Assembly: GCA_021817225.1 (NCBI GenBank)
Contig: JAKAVR010000002.1
Location: 17,240 to 81,239 of the forward strand
Direction: 5' to 3'
DNA: 64,000 nt
From: Thermoplasmata archaeon
Lineage (GTDB): Archaea > Thermoplasmatota > Thermoplasmata > Sysuiplasmatales > Sysuiplasmataceae
The notes below the pieces were generated by a model. That model did not search any database, was not told the DNA's origin, and worked only from the letters and a program-made list of their open reading frames with translations. Numbering within the stretch: position 1 is the first letter of the stretch; every line of letters begins with the position of its first letter. Shown here in pieces: positions 10,599 to 45,989 of this stretch. A program made the position numbers and the translations under genes.

Positions 10599-12067
<1,469 letters not shown>

Positions 12068-12429: not shown

Positions 12430-13923
12430 TTGTCATTCCGGGATGCACTTCAAATGAATGACTCTGCGAATTTCGCGGGCTATCAGGCTGACGACATTGA
12501 ATTCCTCGGCATTGTGTTCGGTCCTGTTGGAAGCTACGAGTTCAAGTTTGCTGTCACTGCTTCGGTAGAGAGGAACGAATATGTGCAGGTTCATCACGGC
12601 GCGTATGGTTGGCTCCTTGGCAGGGTGGATGAGGTGAGGCTCGAGACTGATCTGACGAGTGAAGGGGCCAAAAAAGTGGCAATGGGGGAGAGCGTGGCCT
12701 TCAGCGAAGAGGAGATTGCCCAGGCGACCATCGTTGGATACGCCGATGGCAAAGGAGGAATAGCGTCGCCTAAGCAACCTGTTGCTGCAGGAACCCGGGT
12801 ATACAGAGCGACAGACGAGACAATAGCCTCTGTACTTGGTCTTTCAAGCGAAGCGAACGGTGCGCGCATAGGAACGCTGCACGGAAGGGCACTCCCGGTG
12901 CAGATGGACATTGAGGCAATGGTGCAGAAACACATTTCCATAGTTGCAAAGACAGGGGGAGGGAAAAGCTACCTGGCCGGCGTTCTGATGGAGGAAATGC
13001 TTAAGCATTCGGTTACAACACTTGTACTCGACCCACACGGCGAATACGGCTCACTAAGGGATGCGGAGGGAAACGGTGGCCAGAAAAGTGCGTTTGCATC
13101 TGAAGTGATAGAATTTGCAACCGATGTGGAAGTCAATGCCGCAGCCCAGCCATTGCGCTTCACATGCTCAAACTTCAGTGCGTCGGAGCTTCTTTCACTG
13201 ACGGGCATGGCTGAAAACAGGGGGGCGATTTCGGCCCTGACTGTCTGTCTTGAGAGGGTGAAGGAGAAGGGGCAGGATTATGTTATACAGGACATAATAA
13301 CTGAAATGGAGGAAGGCGACAACCCGCTGCTGTCTCAGCTGAGGAAGGAGCTTGGCGTGATTTCTGCAATGAATATTTTTTCCGAACACGGGACGAGAAC
13401 GGATCAGATTGCCAACCCCGGAAAAACAACGATAATAAACTTCAAGGGAGCGACCCCGGAAGTGCAGGGACTGTTCGCAAGAAGGCTTCTTACTGCCCTG
13501 TTTGAGCAGAGGAAGAGGGGAAAGATCCCGCCCCTCCTGGTCGTGCTCGAGGAGGCACACAACTTCTGTCCACAGCAGGGGAAGACAGAGGCGAGCAGGA
13601 TAATAAGAACAATAGCCGCGGAGGGAAGGAAGTTCGGATTGTGGATCATGGTGATTACACAAAGGGCTGCGAAGGTGGACAAGAATGTGCTCAGTCAATG
13701 CAATACGCAGTTCATCCTGAAGCTCACAAACGTCAACGACATCAAAGCTGTGGCATCCTCGGTGGAGGGGATGACAGCAGAGATGCTCCAGGAAATACCC
13801 AGGCTGCAGACAGGCGTTGCAATAGCAATCGGCGGCGGTCTTCCCGTTCCGCTGCTGGTGGATGTGAGGAAGAGGCTGACACGCCACGGGGGCGAAAGCG
13901 TCGGCACTTTATGGAGGAAGTAA
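12430..13923 (+). CDS. HerA-like (DUF87) ATPase/helicase paralog
   Basis: HAS-barrel-like N-terminus. Walker A IVAKTGGGKSY, the HerA hallmark LVLDPHGEY, Walker B LLVVLEEAHNF, and ITQRAAKV. No NurA, Mre11 or Rad50 nearby. Confidence 0.65.
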   Translation: MSFRDALQMNDSANFAGYQADDIEFLGIVFGPVGSYEFKFAVTASVERNEYVQVHHGAYGWLLGRVDEVRLETDLTSEGAKKVAMGESVAFSEEEIAQATIVGYADGKGGIASPKQPVAAGTRVYRATDETIASVLGLSSEANGARIGTLHGRALPVQMDIEAMVQKHISIVAKTGGGKSYLAGVLMEEMLKHSVTTLVLDPHGEYGSLRDAEGNGGQKSAFASEVIEFATDVEVNAAAQPLRFTCSNFSASELLSLTGMAENRGAISALTVCLERVKEKGQDYVIQDIITEMEEGDNPLLSQLRKELGVISAMNIFSEHGTRTDQIANPGKTTIINFKGATPEVQGLFARRLLTALFEQRKRGKIPPLLVVLEEAHNFCPQQGKTEASRIIRTIAAEGRKFGLWIMVITQRAAKVDKNVLSQCNTQFILKLTNVNDIKAVASSVEGMTAEMLQEIPRLQTGVAIAIGGGLPVPLLVDVRKRLTRHGGESVGTLWRK

Positions 13924-26282: not shown

Positions 26283-26394
26283 GAGTGCCCATTTGTAATG
26301 TAGTATAAAAGAATAAGCCGCCATGCCGCACTGTCGGCGGCGACGTGGGGCGCCTGCCATATTATTATCGCTGGTATGCAAATACGCATACCGT

Positions 26395-26799
26395 ATGTCG
26401 CTTCGAAAAACAGACATCAATTCATCACCCAAGGCGGTCGTGGATGCAATGTGCCAGTCAATCACCGGGAAAGGACTCACGCTTTATTCGGTCATAGACC
26501 ACCGCAGTGAAATCGAGGAGGCGGCCGCAACTCCCTTCACAGCCTACACGATAACATTCGGCAGTCCCGCACTTTCCTCAATGTTGCTTGCCAAGAACAT
26601 AGAGCTCTCCGTCGACATACCCCTCAGGACATCCGTTGTTTCAAGACAGAACGGATGCAGGTTGATATGGAGGGACATGCACTCCCTGCTGAGCGACTTT
26701 CAGGTTGCCAATTCCGAAAATACAGCCAATCTTGTAAACGGCATTATTGAAGATGTGATAAACGGTGCGCGTGCCATTTGCGACAGTTCTGAGAGATAA
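26395..26799 (+). CDS. DUF302-family protein (second paralog)
   Basis: ITGKGLTLYSVIDHRSEIEE...TITFGSPALSSMLL...LPLRTSVVSRQNGCRLIW resembles the DUF302 pattern. An ATTATTAT box lies about 27 nt upstream of the ATG at 26395. Confidence 0.5.
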   Translation: MSLRKTDINSSPKAVVDAMCQSITGKGLTLYSVIDHRSEIEEAAATPFTAYTITFGSPALSSMLLAKNIELSVDIPLRTSVVSRQNGCRLIWRDMHSLLSDFQVANSENTANLVNGIIEDVINGARAICDSSER

Positions 26800-26960
26800 G
26801 GCGACCCGTGAGCTGTCTGGCTGCCATGGAGTTTTCCACTGCCCGCCCTGTTCCCGTGCTGCAAGGCAATTCGACCGCTTTCGGGCACCTCTCCCTTCTC
26901 CCCTGCTTAAATAAGCGCTCAGGGCTGGTTACATACATACCCAGACGGGAGCAGAAGCAC

Positions 26961-27665
26961 ATGTTGAAGTTCGAAAGCAATATGGCAAGGGCCACACCAG
27001 ATTCTCTAACGGTAATCGAGGGGCGAAACCGTAACAGTTGCATAATAAAGAGGGGAGAAAATACATTCATAGGCGGGCCCTCTTCGGTGACAGGCAAGCT
27101 TCTGCATTCAATCGTTTTCAGATCCCTTGCTGTTTCTGATGGAATAGTGCTCTGGATAGACGGCGGCAATTCGTTTGACCCGTACAGGATTTCGGAACTG
27201 GCTGAAAGATGCGGATACGATGGAAGAAAAATGCTCTCCAGGATAAGGATTGCCAGGGCTTTCACCGCCCATCAGATGGAGGCCATTGCACGTTCGGCCT
27301 CAAAGGAGGCCCGTGGCAACAGCATATCGATCCTTGTTGTATCATCTGTTGCGGAACTGTTCACCGGCGAAGTCGGATGGAAGGAAGGAATGGACCTCCT
27401 GAAGAGCACTGTTGGAAATCTTGGAAAACTTGCAGAGAACTGCGGCGCATGGTCCGTTATGACATCGGGCATATCCGTGAGTTCCAGCACTGAAATGGAA
27501 AGGATAGTGGATGAGAACTTCGCAAGAGTGGTGAACGTTGAGCTGGAAAATGAAGATCTTTACCTTGAAAGCGACGGACAGGTTCTGGCAGTAAGCAGGT
27601 GGAGCGAGAAAAGGCACCAGAGATCCATACTTGAGTTCACAGGCAGAGGTGATCGAGCTGGGTAG
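26961..27665 (+). CDS. RadB/RecA-superfamily-like protein with a degenerate Walker A
   Basis: FIGGPSSVTGKLLHSI sits in the Walker A position but is non-canonical. IVLWIDGGNSFDPYRISELAE resembles the RadB block VVYIDTEGGFSPERL. Start uncertain (M at 26961 or 26982; the ORF is drawn from 26808). Confidence 0.45.
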   Translation: MLKFESNMARATPDSLTVIEGRNRNSCIIKRGENTFIGGPSSVTGKLLHSIVFRSLAVSDGIVLWIDGGNSFDPYRISELAERCGYDGRKMLSRIRIARAFTAHQMEAIARSASKEARGNSISILVVSSVAELFTGEVGWKEGMDLLKSTVGNLGKLAENCGAWSVMTSGISVSSSTEMERIVDENFARVVNVELENEDLYLESDGQVLAVSRWSEKRHQRSILEFTGRGDRAG

Positions 27666-27903
27666 AACTGTTCCAACGTTCAGGACAGAAATAGAGAGGA
27701 TCGTTTCACGCTGGGAGAAATTCGGCAGCGCCCTCAGAAAGGAGGAGAAGACGTACCTTGAAAGAGTGATAGCAAAGGCAAGGCATCATTCATCCGCCTC
27801 CACATATGCCGCCCTCGTCAATCCCGTGGAGGGCATGATGCTTTCCATAATGATAGAGCAGGAAAAGGAACTAGATCTTCTCAAACGGAAGTACCATTTC
27901 TAA
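27631..27903 (+). CDS. hypothetical small helical protein
   Basis: 90 aa. It overlaps the 3' end of the RadB-like gene and ends 15 nt before the PolB gene. Confidence 0.3.
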   Translation: MSSQAEVIELGRTVPTFRTEIERIVSRWEKFGSALRKEEKTYLERVIAKARHHSSASTYAALVNPVEGMMLSIMIEQEKELDLLKRKYHF

Positions 27904-27917
27904 GAGGCAGCGGGTGG

Positions 27918-30059
27918 ATGGAAGGGTGGATAATAGATGCCTACACGGATGTGAAAAGGAACAGCGTTGTCCTGTGGGTAAAAGGAAATGAAGTAAGGAA
28001 GTTTGAATTCGGATACAGACCAACATTTCACGTCGGCGGAAACGCTGCTTCGCTGGATGAAATTGCACGAAGGCTTGACAAAATAGAGAGCGTAGACGAG
28101 AGGAGGGTTGTAAGAAAGACCGCGCCTCAAATGCAGCTTGCTGATATGCTTGAGATAAGCACGGGTGACTTTCACACATACCGCAAGATTGCAGAAGGCA
28201 TATATGCGCTTGGAGACCACACAGGCTACACCGTATACGATGCAGACATACCCATAGAGCAGCGCTTCATGCTTGATAACGGCATATTTCCGCTTGCGTT
28301 TATCTCGGCTGGAAATGGCGAGATTAAATGCCTTGATTCTCTGAATGAGATATATTATGAGATGCCGCCCCTCAATACGGCCCATCTTGACATAACATTT
28401 GAAAAGAACCCGCCTGCAAAAGACACGCGAATAGGAAGCATAGCAATAGACAGCGATATCATCGAGGATGATGAGGAGAGAATGCTTCTGGAGGCGGCGA
28501 GAATACTGAGTTCGAAGAATTACGATCTGATACTCACAAATGGTGGTGATGCCTTTGCAATAAGGCAGATGTACAGGCGTGCCGCGTGCCTGGATCTTGA
28601 TGAATTCACGCTTGGAAGGGAGGTGGGGATGAGGGGGTCGTATGCGGCAAAGAGCTACATGAGCTACGGCAGGATATTCTACAAGCCGTCACCCGCGATG
28701 CTCATGGGCAGATTGCACATAGATACACGCAACTCGTTCCTGCATATAGAGTCTGGACTGGAGGGGCTTGCAGAAATATCCAGGCTTTCCTACATGGGAC
28801 TGCAGCAGCTTTCCAGACTTTCCCCGGGCACTGCCATAAGCAGCATGGAGACAATGGAGGCGCTGAGGCAGAACGGTTCTGTGCCATGGAAGAAGAACAG
28901 GCCAGAGATGTTCAAAACCGCAGAGGAGCTAGTAGAATCTGACAGGGGAGGACTCATATTCACGCCTGTAACAGGCTTTCACAGCAATGTCTTCGGTCTT
29001 GATTTCTCATCCCTGTACCCGGCCATAATGAAAAAGGAAAACATATCCGTGGACACGCTCAACTGCAAGTGCTGCGCAGTGGATGGAAGGAATGTTCCCG
29101 GACTCGGATATCACTTCTGCGTACGCAGGACAGGACTTATACCATCCGTCATAGGCAACCTGATAATGAGGCGCAGAAAGTACAAAACAATGAGCGATGA
29201 ATTTGCAGCAAAAAGGAGGAATGCGCTCAAATGGGTTCTTGTCACATCCTTTGGCTATACGGGGTTCAGGAATGCCAAATTTGGAAGCATAGAATGCCAC
29301 GAATCAATAAATGCATTCGGCAGGGATATCCTCCTGCATGCAGCGCGAAGGGCGGAAGAGATGGGATTCAGGGTGCTACATGGCATAGTCGATTCACTCT
29401 GGATACAGGGCGAGGGGGACGCTTTAGAGTATGCCGAAAGGATAGGGAGTGAGACTGGAATACCATTTGAGGTCGAAGGCAGGTATCGCTGGATTGTTTT
29501 CCTGAACAACAAGGGGGACGGAGAGGGCAGCCTCAACAAATACTACGGCCTCTTCGATGATGGCACCTACAAGCTCAGGGGGATTGAACTCAGGAGATCC
29601 GATTCTCCCGAAATAGTCAGGTTTGCCCAGAACATAATGCTTGAATACCTGCGCGATTCGACCGACGGGAAAGATTTTGTTCAGAGGGCAAGGAACGGAA
29701 TAATGAGGGTGGCGGAACTCGTGAAGGATGTAAAAAGAGGGAGCTATCCCGTCGAAGACATGATCATAACAAAGCGTGTTTCAAAGACGCTTGATGAATA
29801 CAGGAGCAGCAACGAGCGGCAAATCGCACTGCTGCGACTCAGGGAAGCAGGGATGGAGGTTAGCGCAGGGGAAGTCATCAGATATGTTGTTGCGGCAGCA
29901 AGAAAGGACAGAATCATTGTTCCCGAACAGCTTCTTACGGACAACGATGCCTATGAGGCTGGATACTACTCCAGGCTGATTGCACGTGCGCTTGCTACGA
30001 TGCTCTTTCCCTTTGGCTACGATGAAAAAAAGATTCTTTCAATGTTCAGGTATTCTTGA
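27918..30059 (+). CDS. family-B DNA polymerase, PolB2-like (exonuclease motifs degenerate)
   Basis: PolB N-terminal signature WIIDAYTDVKRNSVVLWVKG...YRPTFHV. Motif A DFSSLYPAIM (29001..29030). Motif B is divergent (KWVLVTSFGYTGF). Motif C reads HGIVDSLW (29379..29402) instead of YGDTDS. Exo I is DIT rather than DIE, and Exo II is NGGDAFA rather than NGDSFD. At 713 aa it is shorter than replicative PolB. Confidence 0.75.
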   Translation: MEGWIIDAYTDVKRNSVVLWVKGNEVRKFEFGYRPTFHVGGNAASLDEIARRLDKIESVDERRVVRKTAPQMQLADMLEISTGDFHTYRKIAEGIYALGDHTGYTVYDADIPIEQRFMLDNGIFPLAFISAGNGEIKCLDSLNEIYYEMPPLNTAHLDITFEKNPPAKDTRIGSIAIDSDIIEDDEERMLLEAARILSSKNYDLILTNGGDAFAIRQMYRRAACLDLDEFTLGREVGMRGSYAAKSYMSYGRIFYKPSPAMLMGRLHIDTRNSFLHIESGLEGLAEISRLSYMGLQQLSRLSPGTAISSMETMEALRQNGSVPWKKNRPEMFKTAEELVESDRGGLIFTPVTGFHSNVFGLDFSSLYPAIMKKENISVDTLNCKCCAVDGRNVPGLGYHFCVRRTGLIPSVIGNLIMRRRKYKTMSDEFAAKRRNALKWVLVTSFGYTGFRNAKFGSIECHESINAFGRDILLHAARRAEEMGFRVLHGIVDSLWIQGEGDALEYAERIGSETGIPFEVEGRYRWIVFLNNKGDGEGSLNKYYGLFDDGTYKLRGIELRRSDSPEIVRFAQNIMLEYLRDSTDGKDFVQRARNGIMRVAELVKDVKRGSYPVEDMIITKRVSKTLDEYRSSNERQIALLRLREAGMEVSAGEVIRYVVAAARKDRIIVPEQLLTDNDAYEAGYYSRLIARALATMLFPFGYDEKKILSMFRYS

Positions 30060-31179
30060 GGCGCGAGAAGAAGCCCTTGCCCTTTTCCTCTTCAAGCTCT
30101 CCAAATTTCTTGAGTATCTGCTTCTGCTCCGCAGAAAGCTTTCTCGGAACGACAACCTTGAGCGTAACGTATATATCGCCATTACCACGGCTGTTGAGCC
30201 TTGGCATCCCGAGAGAACTCATCCTGAAGACGGTGCCCGGCTGTGTTCCAGGCGGGACCTGCAGCTTTGCCTTCGAGACCATCGTCGGTACGTCGACCTC
30301 ACCGCCAAGAGCGGCAAGGGTGAATGGGACTTCAGCGGTGTAATAGAGGTTTTCTCCTTCCCTGTTGAAGACCTCGTGCTCTGTCACATGGATGACGACA
30401 TAAAGGTCTCCGCTTGGCCCGCCGTTTGCTCCTGCCTCACCGGCACCCCGTACGCGGAGGCGCATTCCATCCTCTGCCCCCTTTGGGATTGAAACCTCTA
30501 TGGTGGAAGTTGTCTGCTTCTTGCCAGAACCGCCGCAGGATTTGCACCTCTCCCTGATCACCTTGCCGCTGCCCCCGCAGGTCTGGCATGTCCTCACGGT
30601 AACGAAATGACCGCCAAGGGCAGTCTGCCTGTAACTGAGCTGGCCGCTGCCATGGCATGTAGGACACTGTTCCAGCTTGCCACTTTCCGCTCCGGTGCCG
30701 CTGCATTTTTCACACCTGACATCCCGGGGGATCTCAAGCCGCCTGCTCGAGCCCTTGTACGCCTCATCAAGCGAAATCTCCAGATCATACTGGAGTGACG
30801 CCCCTGTTTCGGGATAGGTGCCACGCCTGCCTGCCTGGCCGCCGAAGAAGAAGTCAAAGAGCGAACCTCCTCCGCTGAAACCCATACCCCCAAAGAGATC
30901 GCTTATGTCCTGGAAGTGTGTGAAATTTGACCAGTCGAAGCCCCGCGACCCGAATGTCACTCCCTCGGATCCGAAGGAGTCGTAGTTCCTCCTCTTGTCC
31001 GGATCCATGAGCACTTCGTATGCTTCGGAGACCTCCTTGAACTTCTCCTCCGCTTCCTTCCTCTCGAGTTTGGAAACGTCCGGGTGGTACTGCTGGGCGA
31101 GCTTCCTGTAGGCCCTTTTTATGTCGTCGGGACTGGCTGTTTTGCTGATGCCCAGTGTCTCATAGTAATCCTTCGTCAT
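30046..31179 (-). CDS. dnaJ: chaperone DnaJ
   Basis: J domain with HPD (YRKLAQQYHPD), a G/F region, and four CxxCxGxG zinc repeats. Confidence 0.9.
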   Translation of the reverse strand: MTKDYYETLGISKTASPDDIKRAYRKLAQQYHPDVSKLERKEAEEKFKEVSEAYEVLMDPDKRRNYDSFGSEGVTFGSRGFDWSNFTHFQDISDLFGGMGFSGGGSLFDFFFGGQAGRRGTYPETGASLQYDLEISLDEAYKGSSRRLEIPRDVRCEKCSGTGAESGKLEQCPTCHGSGQLSYRQTALGGHFVTVRTCQTCGGSGKVIRERCKSCGGSGKKQTTSTIEVSIPKGAEDGMRLRVRGAGEAGANGGPSGDLYVVIHVTEHEVFNREGENLYYTAEVPFTLAALGGEVDVPTMVSKAKLQVPPGTQPGTVFRMSSLGMPRLNSRGNGDIYVTLKVVVPRKLSAEQKQILKKFGELEEEKGKGFFSRLKNT

Positions 31180-31203
31180 CGGGCCCGTACCTCAGTGTCT
31201 GCT

Positions 31204-33069
31204 CTACTTGTCATCAACTATCTTGTAGTTAGCATCTACGTACCCGTCCCCGTCCTTGCCATCCTTCTTGTCGTCGCCGGAGGGTGGGGGTGGCTGCTGC
31301 GACGCTTCTTGGCTCGCTTCTGCCTGCTTCTGGTATATTTTGGATGAAACCTCGTATACCTTCTTTGACACCTGGTCTATCTTGGACTGCATGGCGGCGT
31401 CGTCTCCTCGACCAATAATATCGTCGAGCTCCTTCAGTTCCTTCTCAATGGACTCTCTGTCCTCCTGAGATATCTTGTCCTTGAGGTCTTCAAGTGTTTT
31501 CTTCGTGCTGTAGGAGAGGCTTTCTGCCCTGTTTCTCAGTTCAGCCTTTGCCTGACTCTTCTTGTCTTCCTCCGCGAACTGATCCGCCTCCTTCATCATA
31601 CGATCTATCTCATCCTTGGATAGCTTTGTGCTGGCGGAGATTGTGATCCTCTGTTCCTTCCCCGTGCCGAGATCCTTTGCACTTACGTTCATGATCCCGT
31701 TGGCGTCGATATCGAATGTGACCTCTATCTGTGGAACTCCTCTGGGAGCTGGTGGTATCCCTATCAGGCTGAATCTGCCCAAAGTCACATTGTTGACAGC
31801 CATCGGCCTCTCGCCCTGGAGGACGTGAATGTCCACGCTCGGCTGCCCGTCAGAAGCTGTGGTGAAGACTTCTGACTTTTTTGTGGGTATAGTTGTATTG
31901 CGCTCTATCAGCTTGTGCAGCACTCCGCCCTGTATCTCAACTCCGAGCGAGAGCGGTGTGACATCGAGCAGCAGAATGTCCTTCACTGTTCCCTCGAGTA
32001 CGCCTCCCTGGATTGCAGCCCCCATGGAAACGCATTCCATTGGGTCGACTCCCCTGACAATCTTCTGCCCAAGCATCTCCTCTACGAACTTCTGCACAAC
32101 GGGCATGCGCGTCGGCCCGCCAACCATGATGATCTTGTCTACGTTCTGAGGAGTTATCTTTGCATCAGCCAGGGCCTGGGTGATTGGGTGCCTGCACCTT
32201 TCAATTATTGGTCTGATCAGATCTTCAAGCTTGGCTCTGGTGACTTTCATTGTAAGATGCTTGGGTCCGGATGCATCCTGCGCGATGAAGGGGAGGTTTA
32301 CTTCCGTCTCAACAATTGTAGACAGTTCCACCTTTGCCTTTTCGCATGCTTCTCGCACACGCTCGGCAGCCATTTTGTCGTTGTGAAGATCGACGCCGGT
32401 CTCCGTCTTGAACGTTGAAATGACGTAATCGACAAGCGTCTTGTCCATGTCTGTTCCGCCGAGCTGTGTATCGCCGCTTGTCGAAATCACCTCGAACACG
32501 CCCTGTCCGAACTCCATGATTGTTACATCGAGCGTCCCGCCGCCAAGATCGAAGACAAGTATTTTCTGCTCTTTTTCTGACTTGTCGAGACCGTATGCTA
32601 GCGCGGCTGCAGTGGGCTCATTTATTATCCTCACAACTTCAAGGCCAGCTATTGTGCCTGCGTCTTTTGTTGCCTGCCTCTGGTTATCGTTGAAATAAGC
32701 AGGGACTGTTATCACTGCCTTCTGGACCGCTGACCCGAGGAAGGCTTCCGCATCACGCTTAATCTTCTGCAGAATGAATGCGGATATCTGCTGCGGGGTG
32801 TACTCCTTTCCCTGAATCTTGTACTTGTAATCTGTGCCCATCTTCCTCTTCGCTGCATATATGGTGCCTTCTGGATTGGTAATTGACTGCCTTCTTGCAG
32901 GTTCTCCCACAAGGACACCGTCTTTTGTGAATGCAACTACGGAGGGGAATGCCTTCCCACCGATGCTAGTTCCCTCGGCGCTTGGTATGATCGTGGGTCT
33001 TCCTCCCTCGATTACCGAAGCAGCCGAATTGCTCGTTCCCAAGTCGATACCTATAATCTTTGTCATCAT
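31204..33069 (-). CDS. dnaK: chaperone DnaK (Hsp70)
   Basis: [15 protein letters not shown] and DLGGGTLDV, full Hsp70 length. Confidence 0.95.
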
Positions 33070-33084
33070 TTCACCTCTGATATT

Positions 33085-33795
33085 CTAAACTTCATTTCGC
33101 TCCTTGTCATTTTCATCCTTCTTGGGAGGATTTCTTGAAACCCTGACCTTGGCGGGCCTCAGAACTTTTCCGCCCAGTGTAAAACCTCTCTGGTACACTT
33201 CGGTTATCTGGTTGTCCTCGTAGTCCGGGTTTTCCTCAACCACAATTGCCTCATGATAGTACGGATCGAACTTGCCGCCAGTCTGTATTTCTTTCAGGCC
33301 CTCTTCTGCAAGGACCTGGGCTATGTTGTTTCTGATCTTCTCGATACCGGCCCTGAACGCATCATAGCCGCCATTTCCGCTCGACTCTGCAAGGCCCCGG
33401 TCAAGATCGTCAACAACGGTGACCAGCTTCCTCACCAGCTTCTCAACCACATACTTGCTGTAATCTTCTCGTTCCCGTTCAATCCTCTTTCTGTAATTGT
33501 CAAATTCAGCCTGTATCTTCTTGAGGAGGTTCTCATAGTCCCTTATGATCCCTTCCTTCTCCTGAAGGTTCTTCTTGAGACCCTCAACTTCGCCTGCCGC
33601 CCTCTTTTCCCTGACATCCTGTTCCTCAAGCCTCGGTGCGGCCGGCCTCTCGCCAAGTGCCTTCTCCTTCTTCTGCTCAAGCCTTGGGGCTGAATCCTTT
33701 ATTTCATTCGAATTCACGACGGACTCATCGGTGCCTTCCTCTTCCTCTCCAAGTCCGCCCGCTGCATTTGCCTTTTCCGAATTCTTTTCTGCCAT
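33085..33795 (-). CDS. grpE: nucleotide exchange factor GrpE
   Basis: First gene of the grpE-dnaK-dnaJ operon: acidic/coiled-coil N-terminus and a GrpE C-terminal domain. Confidence 0.8.
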   Translation of the reverse strand: MAEKNSEKANAAGGLGEEEEGTDESVVNSNEIKDSAPRLEQKKEKALGERPAAPRLEEQDVREKRAAGEVEGLKKNLQEKEGIIRDYENLLKKIQAEFDNYRKRIEREREDYSKYVVEKLVRKLVTVVDDLDRGLAESSGNGGYDAFRAGIEKIRNNIAQVLAEEGLKEIQTGGKFDPYYHEAIVVEENPDYEDNQITEVYQRGFTLGGKVLRPAKVRVSRNPPKKDENDKERNEV

Positions 33796-33889
33796 CAGTC
33801 ACACCAGCCGGCCTACTACAGCCGTATTGATCGCAAGTCCAGCTTAAATCTCTGCTGGGCCCTCGGCCCATCCCGCAGTTTCTTTCCGC

Positions 33890-35530
33890 TCAGTCTTCTT
33901 CTTCGCCTGGCGAGGGGCCACCCGGACCTCCGGCTCCTCCTCCACCGCCGCTCTTGGAAGCAATCACGTCGTCTATCCTCAAAATCATGACAGCGGCATC
34001 AGTTGCAGATTGTATTGCCTGCTTGTCTACACGGATAGGTTCAAACACCTTCTGTTTTTTCATGTCTGTGACCTTTCCGTTAATCACGTCAACTCCATGA
34101 TACATCATACCATTCTTGTGGCTGCTCCTTAGGTCTATCAGTATGTCTATCGGGTCCATGCCCGCGTTTTCAGCCAGAGCTGTGGGTATGATTTCCAGTG
34201 CGTTTGCAAATGCCTCTATTGCAATCTGCTCCCTGCCTCCAACCGTCGTTGCGTAATCCTTCAACCTCTGAGAAAGCTCTATGGCAGTTGCTCCCGCCCC
34301 AACAGTAAGCTTGCCATCTTCGACCGCTAGGCTGATGACGCTCAAAGCATCCACCAGGGACCTTTCTGCCTCATCCACAACATGCTCGCTTCCTCCCCTG
34401 AGAAGGATTGAAACCGACTTAGGGTTCCTGCACCCGGTAACGAAAGTCATTTCGTCATCCTGGATCTTCTTCACTTCGACGAGTTTCGCGTGACCCAGGT
34501 CCTTGGAGCTCAATTCATCAAGCTTTGAAACAATGGCTGCGCCGGTGGCCCTTGAGAGCTTCTCCATGTCGGACTTCTTCACTCTCCTCACCGCCAGGAT
34601 GCCTTCTTTAGCAAGGAAGTGCTGTGCAAGATCGTCTATTCCCTTCTGGCAAAAGACAACGTTCGAACCTGATTTCTTGATGGAATCAACCAATCCCCTC
34701 AGGAACTGTTCCTCTTCATCGAGAAAACCGCGCAGCTGAGATGGATCCGTTATTTCTATCTTTGACTCGAGTTCAGTCTTCTTGACTTCGAGCGCCACAT
34801 CAATCACCGCAATCTTGGCGTTTTCGACTGTTCTGGGCATGGAGGGGTGCACCGGTTCCTTGTCGATTATCACACCGCTTAAGAGCTCAGTATCTGAGAG
34901 TCCGCCACCCTGTTTCTTGACGATCTGGATGTTCTCCCTGTCTGCTTTGATGCCTTTGTCTCCGTGTTCAGCCACGCTTGTGACTGCATCGACCGCAATC
35001 TTGGCGAGCTTTTCCCTGCTGCCTGTCACACCCTTGGAACTCATTGCCGTTTCGGCAACTGTCTGAAGGACTGCCTTGTCGCTTGGATCGACGGGGAATG
35101 ATATCAACTCGATGTACTCCATGCATTTGGAGGCTGCCTCCTTGAAACCTTTCGTGACAACTGTCGGATGCACTTTCGACTCAATCAGTTCCTGCGCCTT
35201 CTTGAGAAGCTCACCTGCAAGCACAACAGCGGTTGTGGTTCCATCACCGCAGACTGCATCCTGCGTCTTGGCCACCTCGACAAGCATCTTTGCCGCAGGG
35301 TGCTCGATGTCCATTTCCTTCAGGATGGTCACACCATCATTTGTGATTACAACATCCCCAAGGCTGTCGACCAGCATCTTGTCCATACCACGCGGTCCAA
35401 GGGTTGTCTTCACGGCGTTTGCGATGGCCCTGGCTGCACTGATGTTGTTAGCCTGGGCATCTCGGCCCTTCTCCCTTTTTGTTCCTTCTTTCAAAATCAA
35501 AATAGGTATTTGCTGCTGAGCGCCCATCAT
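33890..35530 (-). CDS. ths: thermosome subunit (group II chaperonin)
   Basis: [42 protein letters not shown]. The Gly-rich C-terminal tail [12 protein letters not shown] is typical. Confidence 0.9.
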
Positions 35531-43600: not shown

Positions 43601-44289
43601 TTCTTCCCTCCTTCTCCCGCACAGTCTGCAGGCATATCCCGAATCAGTGTCCTCTCCTTTGCAAGAAGACCGGCAAGCATGCCCGCATTGAAGGAGAGGT
43701 CAACGAGAGATTTCATCGAATTTTCGACCGAAAAATCCTCAAGCGCTTTCCCGCAATCGCGCTCAATTCCCCCTTCGGTGTAATGCTTTGAGTCATCCAG
43801 CACAGAGCCGAGATGTATCGAGACCATATCCGCCCCCGGAATGAAATTCATTGAATCCATTTTTCCAAGCAGCCTCTCCGCTTCGTTCCTGTGCCTGTTG
43901 TACTCATCGGAAATTTCAGTCGTTCCGGAGTAATTGCCCCTGTCGAAGGAAACAGGAAGGGATAGCTGCACATTGCCGATCGCAGTAACGGAGGAGAAAG
44001 CCAATTGGCTCTTCTGCAGCGTGTCCAATTCCCCCTTGAGCCAACCGGACCAGAATGCGATCTCGATGAGCGTTGATGCTTGATCGTCGGCTGAGATGCC
44101 TGCGTTAGGCGGCGAATTATCCACAAGCCTGTGTCTTATCCTGTCGGCCCACCACATGTTGGAACCGTCACTGTCGCTCAGAATTGCCTCCGCTTCACTG
44201 ACCTCTGATTCCACCTCCTTCAGCCAGGTGGACAGCATTGATCCGAAGAAACTCATTCTCTTGCTGCAGTCAACTGGCAGCCGCTTCAT
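43597..44289 (-). CDS. hypothetical soluble protein (operon member)
   Basis: About 230 aa from the M at 44289 (an ATGA overlap with the VirB4-like stop). No recognisable motif and no TM helix. Confidence 0.4.
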   Translation of the reverse strand: MKRLPVDCSKRMSFFGSMLSTWLKEVESEVSEAEAILSDSDGSNMWWADRIRHRLVDNSPPNAGISADDQASTLIEIAFWSGWLKGELDTLQKSQLAFSSVTAIGNVQLSLPVSFDRGNYSGTTEISDEYNRHRNEAERLLGKMDSMNFIPGADMVSIHLGSVLDDSKHYTEGGIERDCGKALEDFSVENSMKSLVDLSFNAGMLAGLLAKERTLIRDMPADCAGEGGKK

Positions 44290-45989
44290 GCATGCATCGC
44301 CTCCCCGATTAGGCAGACGGCTTCGTCCAACTTCGAAATGGCCATGATACTCATCAGGGCTGAGGGCGTCACCGGTAGCTTTGGTTCGGAGTTGCACACT
44401 TCCCTTTCCTCATCACTGCAGTGAACAATGAGGGGTACCTTCATGCCGGAAGTGACGAGGATGCACTTTCCGACGCCTTCTGTCCTCGGGTGTGAGGAGG
44501 CAATAAACTCCAAATCGCCGTCATTAAGCTCAAAGAACGATCGCATTCTCATGCTCAGTTTTTCATGGCGGAAGACAAAGAAATGGCTGCAGTTGTTCAG
44601 CAGACCGCCGTCCGGGTCCTGACTCAGAAAATCATCGAAATTCTGCGAAGCAAGCAGGACGCTCAACCCATAATGGCGTGAATGCCTCATTAGCTCGGAA
44701 ACGAAGGCGGATGATGCGGGACTCCTTGAAACTGTCCAGGCCTCGTCGAGAACGAGAGTCTTCCTGCCATGGGCCCTTCTGCACAACTCGAATACAAGGC
44801 CAGAAACGAGGCAGATGACATCTTCAAGCATTCCCTTGCTGACAGAACCCATGTCAAAGACAATATGGCCGCCGTTTCCGGAAAGAACGCATTTTCCTTC
44901 AAGCAGGAAGGACATCCTGGAAATGTCCGCCATGTTGCCCCCAAATGAGAGCTCTGCATCATGCAGGTGAGGCAGCGCTTCGAAGAATGAAGATAGGTAC
45001 TGTTCAGAATTGTCGGTCGCATACTTAGTGAGCAGTTGCCTGAATACGACTCCTTCCCTTTCAGTCAGCTTGAAAATACTCTGGACAAAGCGAGTCAGGT
45101 AATGGGCGAATGTAATTGCTTCTGACATTTTGAGCGAGCCGAGGCCAAGACCCTCATGAAAGACGTTGACTACCTCAGCACCCGACTGGAGGCCAACAGC
45201 AAAAAACTCACCCAGGGGATCGATTACGAATATTCTGTTTGACGCGAAGCCTGACTCCCTCAGCATTAACAGCTTCATGAAAAAACTCTTGCCGCTTCCG
45301 CTCTTGCCGATTACGACCGAATTGTAGTTCGGGGTCGAAAAACGATCATGGACAACCGGAGTGCCATCTATTGCATTACAGCCAACGGGAACGCCCATCT
45401 CCTGCAACAAGGGGGACTGGGTGAAAGGAACCAGGGCGGGAAGGGATGAAGTGCTCACAATCGGGCATCTGTCGAAGGAGGGAACAGTTCCTGGAGAAAA
45501 ATCGGCCAATACCTTGAACTGCAGATACTTCAGCCTTGAGTAACGGACGGAAAAGGCCTTCAGCTCGCTCGTAAGCAATTCCGTCCGTTCCCTTAACTCC
45601 GAGCCTGTCTCGGCAACAACCGCAAAAAGAAGAGATGCATAGAAGAGCCTCGTCCTGTCTGATCGCAGCTCAGAAAGGAGCTGCCTCCCGAGTTCAAGCC
45701 TCGTCTCCTGGTAATCTGCCGTTCTGCCTGCGTTCACCCTGTCGAGAATCTCAGCCGACAGGTTGAGCGTGGACCTTTCTACCATTAAAATGGATCTCTC
45801 TTTTGAAATCTGGAAAAGGGACACTGATGCACCCAGGAAAGGAAGACGCAGGAGCATATCCGACAGCCAGTCTGAGGGAAGATTGAACGGAAATCCTGTC
45901 ACAAAGATGAAGGTGATCCGCCTCTTTCCGATATCCGCCCTTTCAATCCCGTTTGCGCTCCGGTGACGATTGTGGAACACAAGATTCAC
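44286..45989 (-). CDS. VirB4/TrbE/CedB-like conjugation-type ATPase
   Basis: Walker A VVIGKSGSGKSFFMKLL, the motif FVIDPLGEF, and Walker B TLVLDEAWTV (the DEAW hallmark of VirB4/AAA_10), then LLASQNFDDF. About 250 aa of N-terminal non-ATPase domain; 567 aa, as in archaeal CedB. Confidence 0.65.
   Translation of the reverse strand: MNLVFHNRHRSANGIERADIGKRRITFIFVTGFPFNLPSDWLSDMLLRLPFLGASVSLFQISKERSILMVERSTLNLSAEILDRVNAGRTADYQETRLELGRQLLSELRSDRTRLFYASLLFAVVAETGSELRERTELLTSELKAFSVRYSRLKYLQFKVLADFSPGTVPSFDRCPIVSTSSLPALVPFTQSPLLQEMGVPVGCNAIDGTPVVHDRFSTPNYNSVVIGKSGSGKSFFMKLLMLRESGFASNRIFVIDPLGEFFAVGLQSGAEVVNVFHEGLGLGSLKMSEAITFAHYLTRFVQSIFKLTEREGVVFRQLLTKYATDNSEQYLSSFFEALPHLHDAELSFGGNMADISRMSFLLEGKCVLSGNGGHIVFDMGSVSKGMLEDVICLVSGLVFELCRRAHGRKTLVLDEAWTVSRSPASSAFVSELMRHSRHYGLSVLLASQNFDDFLSQDPDGGLLNNCSHFFVFRHEKLSMRMRSFFELNDGDLEFIASSHPRTEGVGKCILVTSGMKVPLIVHCSDEEREVCNSEPKLPVTPSALMSIMAISKLDEAVCLIGEAMHA

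Follow-up and report, generated by a model that had tools for sequence, protein, structure and literature searches.

Organization of the locus

The stretch of DNA analysed here, a window of 64,000 nucleotides (nt) from a Thermoplasmata archaeon (GenBank assembly GCA_021817225.1, contig JAKAVR010000002.1), carries at positions 26961-30059 three closely spaced and co-directional genes on the plus strand which, according to the open reading frame (ORF) listing and to direct reading of the sequence, encode a RadA-like protein, a small protein and a DNA polymerase. They are designated here iRadA, PPB2 and PolB2; the names of the two polymerase partners, the gene-order types and the term "PolB2 mutasome" were introduced by Timinskas, Timinskas and Venclovas in 2025 (PMC11791011). 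All features of this locus described below lie on the plus strand.

The first gene, iRadA (26961-27665), specifies an inactivated paralogue of the RadA/Rad51 core (arCOG07763/04294/08101) of 234 amino acids (aa) if read from its ATG codon, and was assigned by means of Pfam Rad51, structures in the PDB, AlphaFold2 (AF2) modelling and Foldseek. Its mechanically called ORF begins further upstream, at GTG 26808, while a database protein that is 99% identical (P0121) has likewise been called at 234 aa. The second gene, PPB2 (27658-27903; arCOG07300, Pfam DUF8156), was recognized through PF26485, BLASTP and AF2; it ends with a stop codon at 27903 and may start at TTG 27631, GTG 27649 or CTG 27658, thereby overlapping iRadA by 35, 17 or 8 nt, respectively, the CTG start giving a product of 81 aa. 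The third gene, PolB2 (27918-30059), encodes a family-B DNA polymerase of 713 aa without a proofreading site, as assigned by Pfam, NCBIfam and BLASTP, and its 3' end overlaps by 14 nt with that of a convergent dnaJ gene. In a preliminary description of this DNA, made from the sequence alone, the co-directional trio with its overlaps was correctly delineated, while the spacer between the small ORF and the polymerase, given there as 15 nt, measures 14 nt; the motif strings quoted in it were all found by direct reading of the translations in the genes to which they had been attributed.

Conservation of the gene trio

The preliminary description had proposed genomic co-occurrence as a check on the trio, and the three genes do indeed travel together. 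In a sample consisting of the best 80 polymerase loci, taken from one genome per species, 64 loci possessed at least 1300 nt of upstream sequence and were thus informative, and hidden Markov model (HMM) searches recovered the order iRadA-PPB2-PolB2 in 56 of these 64, which places the arrangement beyond chance. In most of the eight exceptions PPB2 is present and iRadA, a gene that evolves quickly, was not detected. Similarly, the contigs of six polymerase homologues all (6/6) carry genes for Rad51-like, DUF8156 and DNA_pol_B proteins in that order, and the trio is kept while its flanks change: the flanking genes of Methanomassiliicoccus luminyensis differ from those of the window, and the DUF302 gene that precedes the trio in the window is missing in two of the six. 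As regards the abundance of the individual families, at least 588 relatives of the polymerase were obtained in a scan of one genome per species, 22 relatives of iRadA in a word-indexed search and 536 representative clusters in a full HMMER scan, and nine homologues of PPB2 in a word-indexed search. The nearest species-representative genome is a Thermoplasmata metagenome-assembled genome whose polymerase displays 96% amino acid identity, and the farther polymerase homologues carry Methanomassiliicoccales labels, including M. luminyensis.

An inactivated RadA core protein

The proposal that the first gene product adopts a RecA-superfamily fold is borne out by sequence and by structural comparison. 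The protein matches Pfam Rad51 (E 9.8e-12) and RadA entries of the PDB (E 8e-9), with matches that cover only residues ~60-170, and its AF2 model, for which 22 homologues served as input, has a mean predicted local distance difference test (pLDDT) score of 82.4 and a predicted template modelling (pTM) score of 0.81. Foldseek retrieved with this model the ATPase cores of RAD51, RadA and DMC1 at E ~1e-13, with template modelling (TM) scores of 0.64-0.73 over ~200 aligned columns, and the best target-normalised TM-scores (about 0.7) were obtained with core-only RadA constructs of ~215-225 aa. The N-terminal helical (helix-hairpin-helix, HhH) domain of RadA is missing from iRadA, and the sequence matches begin at about residue 140 of the 320 residues of RadA.

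The RadB-like label that had been attached to this protein was not upheld. Among NCBIfam models RadA scores 43.7 bits and RadB (TIGR02237) 19.1 bits, both far below their cut-offs, so that iRadA is nearer to the RadA/Rad51 core; an identity as RadB was rejected in view of this score, to be set against a cut-off of 172.4, and of the degenerate P-loop.

With respect to the ATPase motifs, the position of Walker A is occupied by GGPSSVTGKL (aa 38-47; 27072-27101), as judged from the alignment of the 22 homologues and from the AF2 model, and the earlier reading of this segment as non-canonical holds. The position is unconserved among the homologues, where NGPSLLTAKL, HGNDAAVNRI and DSAHPYVTEM are among the variants and the pattern GxxxxGK[T/S] is not found; in the model, only a two-residue turn separates strand 34-38 from helix 41-58, and because the strand passes almost straight into the helix there is no P-loop. 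Walker B survives as the remnant ILVVSS (27330-27347), which aligns with LVVIDS or LLIVDS of RadA and has a serine in place of the aspartate, IDS thus having become VSS, and this serine (S128) is nearly invariant in the 22 homologues. The DTEG motif of RadA is changed to DGGN, embedded in WIDGGNSFDP (aa 65-74). The blocks DGGN.F.P and RAFT..Q are invariant in iRadA.

At the C-terminus of iRadA, homologue alignments delineate the segment HQRSILEF (27615-27638), which resembles a PCNA-interacting protein (PIP) box of the form QxxIxxF and is a candidate PCNA-binding motif. Its Q, E and F are invariant in four orthologues, a Q-x-x-L/I-x-x-F/Y pattern recurs across the 22-sequence alignment, and a linker modelled with low confidence leads to a short helix (222-228), so that by its sequence the terminus looks like a PIP-box tail and may bind PCNA. 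The C-terminus of PolB2, KKILSMFRYS (30027-30056), is not conserved. It has been reported that in these systems PIP motifs sit mostly on iRadA (PMC11791011), and the combination of a putative clamp motif on iRadA with an unconserved polymerase C-terminus matches this published pattern.

The small gene PPB2 and its start codon

Although an older Pfam release returned no match for the small ORF, a database protein that is identical over all 81 residues (P0143) carries PF26485 (DUF8156), as do its relatives, and the window protein shares 32% identity (E 2e-17) with a haloarchaeal PPB2 from the supplement of PMC11791011. The AF2 model (pLDDT 87.4) is all helical, with helices at residues 8-25, 28-41, 47-53 and 56-79, which leaves a free N-terminal arm of seven residues. 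The N-terminal sequence GRTVPT(F/Y)R is invariant, and reads GRTVPTFR in the window.

In the window the region 27646-27669 includes CTG-GGT-AGA-ACT, which encodes (M)GRT. When the codon preceding GRT was surveyed in 76 loci, ATG was found in 44, GTG in 17, TTG in three, CTG in six and ACG in four, two loci being devoid of GRT, and no other codon was encountered at this position in these 76 loci. CTG or ACG occupies it, for example, in L077 (290), L020 (2586), L007 (3741), L019 (3759), L062 (1437) and L072 (1772), and in L077 (CTG) and L020 (ACG) there is no canonical in-frame start between the preceding stop codon and the codon adjacent to GRT. Because of this codon census and of the two loci that offer no canonical alternative, a start at CTG, i.e. 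a protein beginning with MGRT, is favoured. A Shine-Dalgarno (SD)-like sequence, GAGGTGATC (27646-27654), lies 3 nt before CTG 27658 and is complementary to the 3' end of the 16S rRNA encoded in the window itself (...GGATCACCTCCT), while an SD-like GGTGAT is present 5-8 nt 5' of the codon adjacent to GRT throughout the loci. The stop codon of iRadA (TAG, 27663-27665) lies within the overlap, and iRadA and PPB2 appear to be translationally coupled; near-cognate initiation of PPB2, probably coupled to termination of iRadA, is the simplest reading of these sequences. Gene callers extend the genes with CTG or ACG at this position upstream, which results in products of 84-99 aa. A correct N-terminus is of importance, since published models put the arm in the polymerase cleft.

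One might argue that the RadA-like ORF and the small one are pseudogenes in decay or have arisen by chance, given that the ATPase motifs of the former are degenerate and that the latter lacks both a match in the older Pfam release and an ATG at the conserved position. Such an explanation can be given hardly any credence, as both genes are intact as ORFs in relatives down to ~25-48% identity, retain invariant blocks (DGGN.F.P and RAFT..Q in iRadA, GRTVPT.R in PPB2), yield confident models and keep their position beside PolB2.

The polymerase is a PolB2-type enzyme

The reading of the third gene product as a family-B, PolB2-like polymerase is supported by the profile and pairwise scores, in which PolB2 references outperform those of PolB1 and PolB3. 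The protein matches Pfam DNA_pol_B (E 1.1e-27) with an exonuclease-domain match only at threshold level, and the NCBIfam model that fits it best, NF004416 ("type B DNA-directed DNA polymerase"), gives 464.6 bits, while the "DNA polymerase I" models of the archaeal PolB1/B3 type reach at most 160 bits. In BLASTP searches it was found to be 38% identical over 403 aa (E 2e-89) to the catalogued PolB2 of Methanomassiliicoccus sp. (NLT37497), a comparison that involved the printed N-terminal 399 residues and thus the N-terminal plus exonuclease-like half, and, for the same half, 32% identical (E 9e-53) to a bacterial PolB2 of the catalogue. Among PolB2 homologues there are also genes for proteins of ~900 aa (P0060, P0070, P0079 and others); a few of these have the Pfam intein-splicing domain PF14890, and the genes apparently contain inteins.

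An alternative is that the polymerase represents a replicative PolB3 or PolB1, or an enzyme of a mobile element such as a casposon or provirus, with neighbours that are unrelated to it, and its best matches among solved structures are in fact PolB3-type enzymes of Thermococcales. Nevertheless, these structures score 155 bits over the whole protein, of which the polymerase domain accounts for ~135 and the exonuclease half for ~19, the structure of Sso Dpo1 (PolB1) scores 105 bits, and catalogued PolB2 proteins and NF004416 match far better. A replicative PolB3 identity was rejected in view of the score of the exonuclease half, of motif C (see below) and of the better match to catalogued PolB2. 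A mobile origin is also difficult to reconcile with the housekeeping synteny seen in relatives and with the co-occurrence of the trio in 56 of 64 loci; no Cas1 or integrase gene is present among the annotated neighbours, and no terminal repeats were seen, although the flanks were not searched for repeats. All in all, this alternative is very improbable.

The catalytic motifs were placed in register by alignment to the KOD polymerase, their conservation being assessed in 31 homologues at 39-79% identity. Motif A, DFSSLYPAIM (aa 362-371; 29001-29030), aligns with LDFRSLYPSII of KOD and is intact as had been described, D362 being invariant. Motif B, KWVLVTSFGYTGF (29229-29267), aligns with KILANSLYGYYGY of KOD and is likewise intact, with its lysine retained and invariant (K438). 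Motif C is the variant HGIVDSLW (aa 488-495; 29379-29402), in which YSDTDG of KOD has become HGIVDS, the DxD signature thus being converted into IxD with isoleucine for the first aspartate and the second aspartate kept. H488, G489, I490, D492, S493, L494 and W495 are invariant, and this string, noted in the preliminary description, is the catalogue's own: it occurs at least 256 times in the available part of the PolB2 catalogue table of PMC11791011.

The active-site residues of the 3'-5' exonuclease are lost, in agreement with the replacement of ExoI and ExoII acidic residues reported previously. NGGDAFA (aa 208-214; 28539-28559) is a remnant of ExoII in which GGDAFA is aligned to NGDNFD of KOD and the catalytic aspartate is replaced by alanine. 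The register of ExoI is ambiguous, as HMMER pairs FDIET with LDSLNE (139-147) while the preliminary description had selected DIT (158-160, within HLDITFE 156-162), and an intact DxE is absent from both registers. The region of ExoIII could not be aligned to KOD polymerase. In the alignment to KOD, the first aspartate of motif C and the exonuclease residues are thus missing.

These substitutions raise the question as to whether the polymerase is catalytically dead, in which case the trio would have a structural or regulatory role, such as one at stalled forks or in the control of replication, as was proposed at the first description of the family. The isoleucine at the first DxD position is invariant in the 31 homologues and the exonuclease residues are lost, and a dead polymerase was the view of Rogozin in 2008 and of Makarova in 2014 (PMC4104785). 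On the other hand, the motif A aspartate, the motif B lysine and the second motif C aspartate have been kept invariant under long divergence, which fits retained catalysis, and Sulfolobus Dpo2, which bears the same kind of substitution (IID), is robustly active (PMC8764526). Loss of polymerase activity is therefore regarded as unlikely, and an active enzyme is preferred.

Upstream of motif A lies the segment MFKTAEEL...SDRGG (aa 331-345; 28908-28952), delineated in the alignment of 31 homologues, which comprises an FxxA-like motif followed by D(K/R)GG. No variation is seen at F332, K333, D342 and G344, A335 and R343 are nearly invariant, and both motifs likewise occur in catalogued archaeal and bacterial PolB2 proteins. 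On the basis of published models (PMC11791011), this segment is predicted to contain the regions that contact iRadA and PPB2.

A conserved box in the putative promoter region

Alignment of upstream regions revealed a 17-nt conserved box, TTTCGGGCACCTCTCCC (26879-26895), which is invariant or nearly so in the aligned regions of relatives and may be an operator. If up to four mismatches are allowed, 20 of 71 loci carry the 17-mer 5' of iRadA, and its 13-mer core with at most one mismatch has ten copies in the 819 kb searched, all of them just 5' of iRadA and on the gene strand; the window contains a single copy. The offset of the box is kept in Methanomassiliicoccales-like loci even where the polymerases are only ~40% identical, M. 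luminyensis included, and further copies are located, among others, in L004 (4976-4992), L011 (2964), L019 (2944) and L031 (2965). Downstream of the box, the same alignment shows a TATA-box-like element, CTTAAATAA (26906-26914), about 46 nt before the iRadA ATG, and TTAAATAA is invariant in seven aligned upstream regions. The box precedes this element by 10-11 nt, and A/T-rich TATA-like elements are present at the same offset in distant loci; the element presumably acts as a promoter.

The 5' edge of the box often reads (A/G)NTTTC, and the Orc1-2 DNA damage-responsive element (DDRE) of Sulfolobales is ANTTTC (PMC9738581); a kinship between the two is speculative. It has also been considered that the box TTTCGGGCACCTCYCCC is a lineage-wide operator of Methanomassiliicoccales and that, in addition, PPB2 is translated through SD-assisted re-initiation at CUG or ACG in about one seventh of the loci, a combined proposal which is tentative and somewhat doubtful. 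If correct, it would provide a first cis-regulatory handle on a DNA-damage response in this order of methanogens, together with a case of near-cognate initiation that occurs naturally in archaea.

The possibility that the box represents the Shine-Dalgarno sequence and start of a divergent gene, raised by the presence of GAGGTG in its reverse complement, was dismissed, since in the window and in close relatives the upstream gene runs in the same direction as iRadA. This upstream gene (26323-26799) has a Pfam DUF302 match at threshold (23.5 bits versus a cut-off of 23), while its orthologues have clear precomputed PF03625 (DUF302) matches. The statement that a DUF302 gene precedes the trio was thus correct, but it does not belong to the module: as a fourth operon member it was discarded because it is gone from the upstream region in two related loci (L003 and L004) and because the box and the TATA-like element separate it from iRadA.

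A metagenome scan for further copies of the box was uninformative with regard to a regulon, since the listed matches (at least 120) are mostly bacterial and apparently due to chance, and none of them has iRadA, PPB2 or PolB2 downstream. In two of these metagenome loci (L123 and L100) a 16-mer match to the box is followed by an ORF with an IS200/IS605 OrfB/TnpB-like N-terminus, an adjacency that is probably coincidental. A scan for sigma-70 promoters and intrinsic terminators gave counts that did not exceed the shuffle means, these models not being applicable to archaea.

Genomic neighbourhood

The window also harbours 16S rRNA, ribosomal protein, RFC small subunit, purA, thermosome subunit, PAN and topoisomerase I genes, and in view of its archaeal 16S rRNA and housekeeping genes the locus is archaeal chromosomal DNA. 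The 16S rRNA gene is complete (10600-12067, minus strand); no 23S rRNA or tRNA gene was detected within the 64-kb window, and because of the missing 23S rRNA the rRNA genes are apparently unlinked. Convergent to PolB2 there is a dnaJ-dnaK-grpE chaperone cluster of the bacterial type, after which comes a thermosome (Cpn60/TCP-1) gene (30046-35530, minus strand), and the dnaJ-dnaK-grpE synteny is kept in five related loci (L001, L003 and L006-L008). Two genes for HerA/DUF87-type ATPases are located at 12430-13923 (plus strand) and 44286-45989 (minus strand), the latter of which also matches AAA_10 and TraG-like P-loop models.

Proposed function of the module

Taken together, the locus is with considerable confidence a copy, on the chromosome of a Thermoplasmata/Methanomassiliicoccales-like archaeon, of the archaeal PolB2 mutasome operon in its commonest gene order, type 1a. 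Makarova, Krupovic and Koonin reported in 2014 that PolB2, arCOG07300 (a helical protein of ~90 aa) and an inactivated RadA form predicted operons in archaea and some bacteria, and proposed that their products constitute a damage-repair complex (PMC4104785). This complex has since been modelled as a heteropentamer of one PolB2, one iRadA and three PPB2 subunits, the same work describing the MGRT arm of PPB2 (with Arg3 and Arg9), the D(K/R) motif of PolB2 and an iRadA-binding segment that resembles the Rad51 oligomerisation motif (PMC11791011). Since the operon is described in both papers, the suggestion in the preliminary description that the pairing of a PolB2-like enzyme with a RecA paralogue was undescribed is wrong. 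The core of its functional reading, i.e. a compact damage-tolerance module made up of an exonuclease-dead PolB2, a non-hydrolytic RecA paralogue and a helical protein, is on the other hand consistent with the literature model, and by analogy with Sulfolobus Dpo2 the module likely functions in damage-tolerance DNA synthesis.

Expression would probably be driven by the operon's own promoter, comprising the TATA-like element at 26906 and the conserved box at 26879. For the gene products, the following scheme may be envisaged from published work on relatives. PolB2 would bind one iRadA by means of an FxxA-like loop that imitates the oligomerisation motif of Rad51, and a PPB2 trimer would dock such that, according to published models, one (M)GRT arm reaches in between PolB2 and iRadA, close to the DNA. 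The QxxIxxF tail of iRadA might tether the complex to PCNA, as proposed for relatives, and the assembled complex would extend mismatched or lesion-opposed primer ends without proofreading, in the manner established by biochemical and genetic work on Sulfolobus islandicus Dpo2. The latter is the only PolB2 that has been studied experimentally (PMC7390963, PMC8764526); it is induced by damage, is responsible for targeted mutagenesis, and extends mismatched and lesion-opposed termini as an active polymerase devoid of exonuclease. Dpo2 enzymes of both S. islandicus and S. solfataricus that carry IID in motif C have been reported to be robust polymerases (PMC8764526).

Several considerations weigh against this interpretation. 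The assignment to PolB2 is based on pairwise and profile scores. PPB2 has CTG before GRT, and its conserved arm may be longer at the N-terminus instead of beginning with MGRT. The orc1/cdc6, SRAP and DUF72 genes are all absent beside the trio in the window, so there is no direct contextual link to a damage response. Finally, what is said here of activity, of complex assembly and of induction by damage is carried over from Sulfolobales and from the AlphaFold models of other authors.

The copy in the window is an ordinary one of a known system, and as one more representative of a catalogued operon it has no discovery value. Its analysis confirms that in a Thermoplasmata lineage the operon has remained intact and is subject to purifying selection, and the family is of interest as the sole family-B translesion polymerase with several subunits that has been proposed in prokaryotes, experiments having so far been confined to Sulfolobales. 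In this regard, the promoter box and the CTG or ACG starts of PPB2 could aid studies of regulation or the reconstitution of the complex.

Comparison with known systems

The similarity to the type 1a mutasome operon (PMC11791011, PMC4104785) extends to the three families, their order and tight spacing, the HGIVDSLW, FxxA and D(K/R)GG motifs, the GRT...R arm of PPB2, the ATPase-dead RadA core devoid of the N-terminal domain, and the PIP-like tail, which is on iRadA and not on PolB2. In the available part of the catalogue, type 1a operons of Thermoplasmata and Methanomassiliicoccus are included with the motif HGIIDSLWV/HGIVDSLW (PMC11791011). The window differs from them only in details, namely the CTG instead of ATG before GRT, a neighbourhood without orc1/cdc6, SRAP or DUF72, and a synteny with purA/DUF302 on one side and dnaJ-dnaK-grpE on the other.

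Sulfolobus islandicus Dpo2 is likewise a family-B enzyme with IxD for DxD and no exonuclease site that is encoded with PPB2 and iRadA. It stems from another phylum, and the available part of the catalogue gives the order of Sulfolobales as type 3a (PPB2-PolB2-iRadA) instead of 1a, the two systems being likened by description; damage induction through Orc1-2 and the DDRE has been shown in Sulfolobus.

Archaeal RadB shares with iRadA the property of being a short RecA-superfamily protein without the N-terminal domain of RadA. Nonetheless, RadB keeps Walker A, whereas the P-loop of iRadA is unconserved and iRadA scores higher on RadA/Rad51/Dmc1 models.

As for the Pol V mutasome of Escherichia coli (UmuD'2C-RecA-ATP), the resemblance is one of analogy only, in that a translesion polymerase is combined with a member of the RecA family and with a small subunit bearing an N-terminal arm (PMC11791011). 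Pol V has a Y-family catalytic subunit, an active, filament-derived RecA and the unrelated UmuD', its polymerase and small subunit thus being non-homologous to those of the archaeal module.

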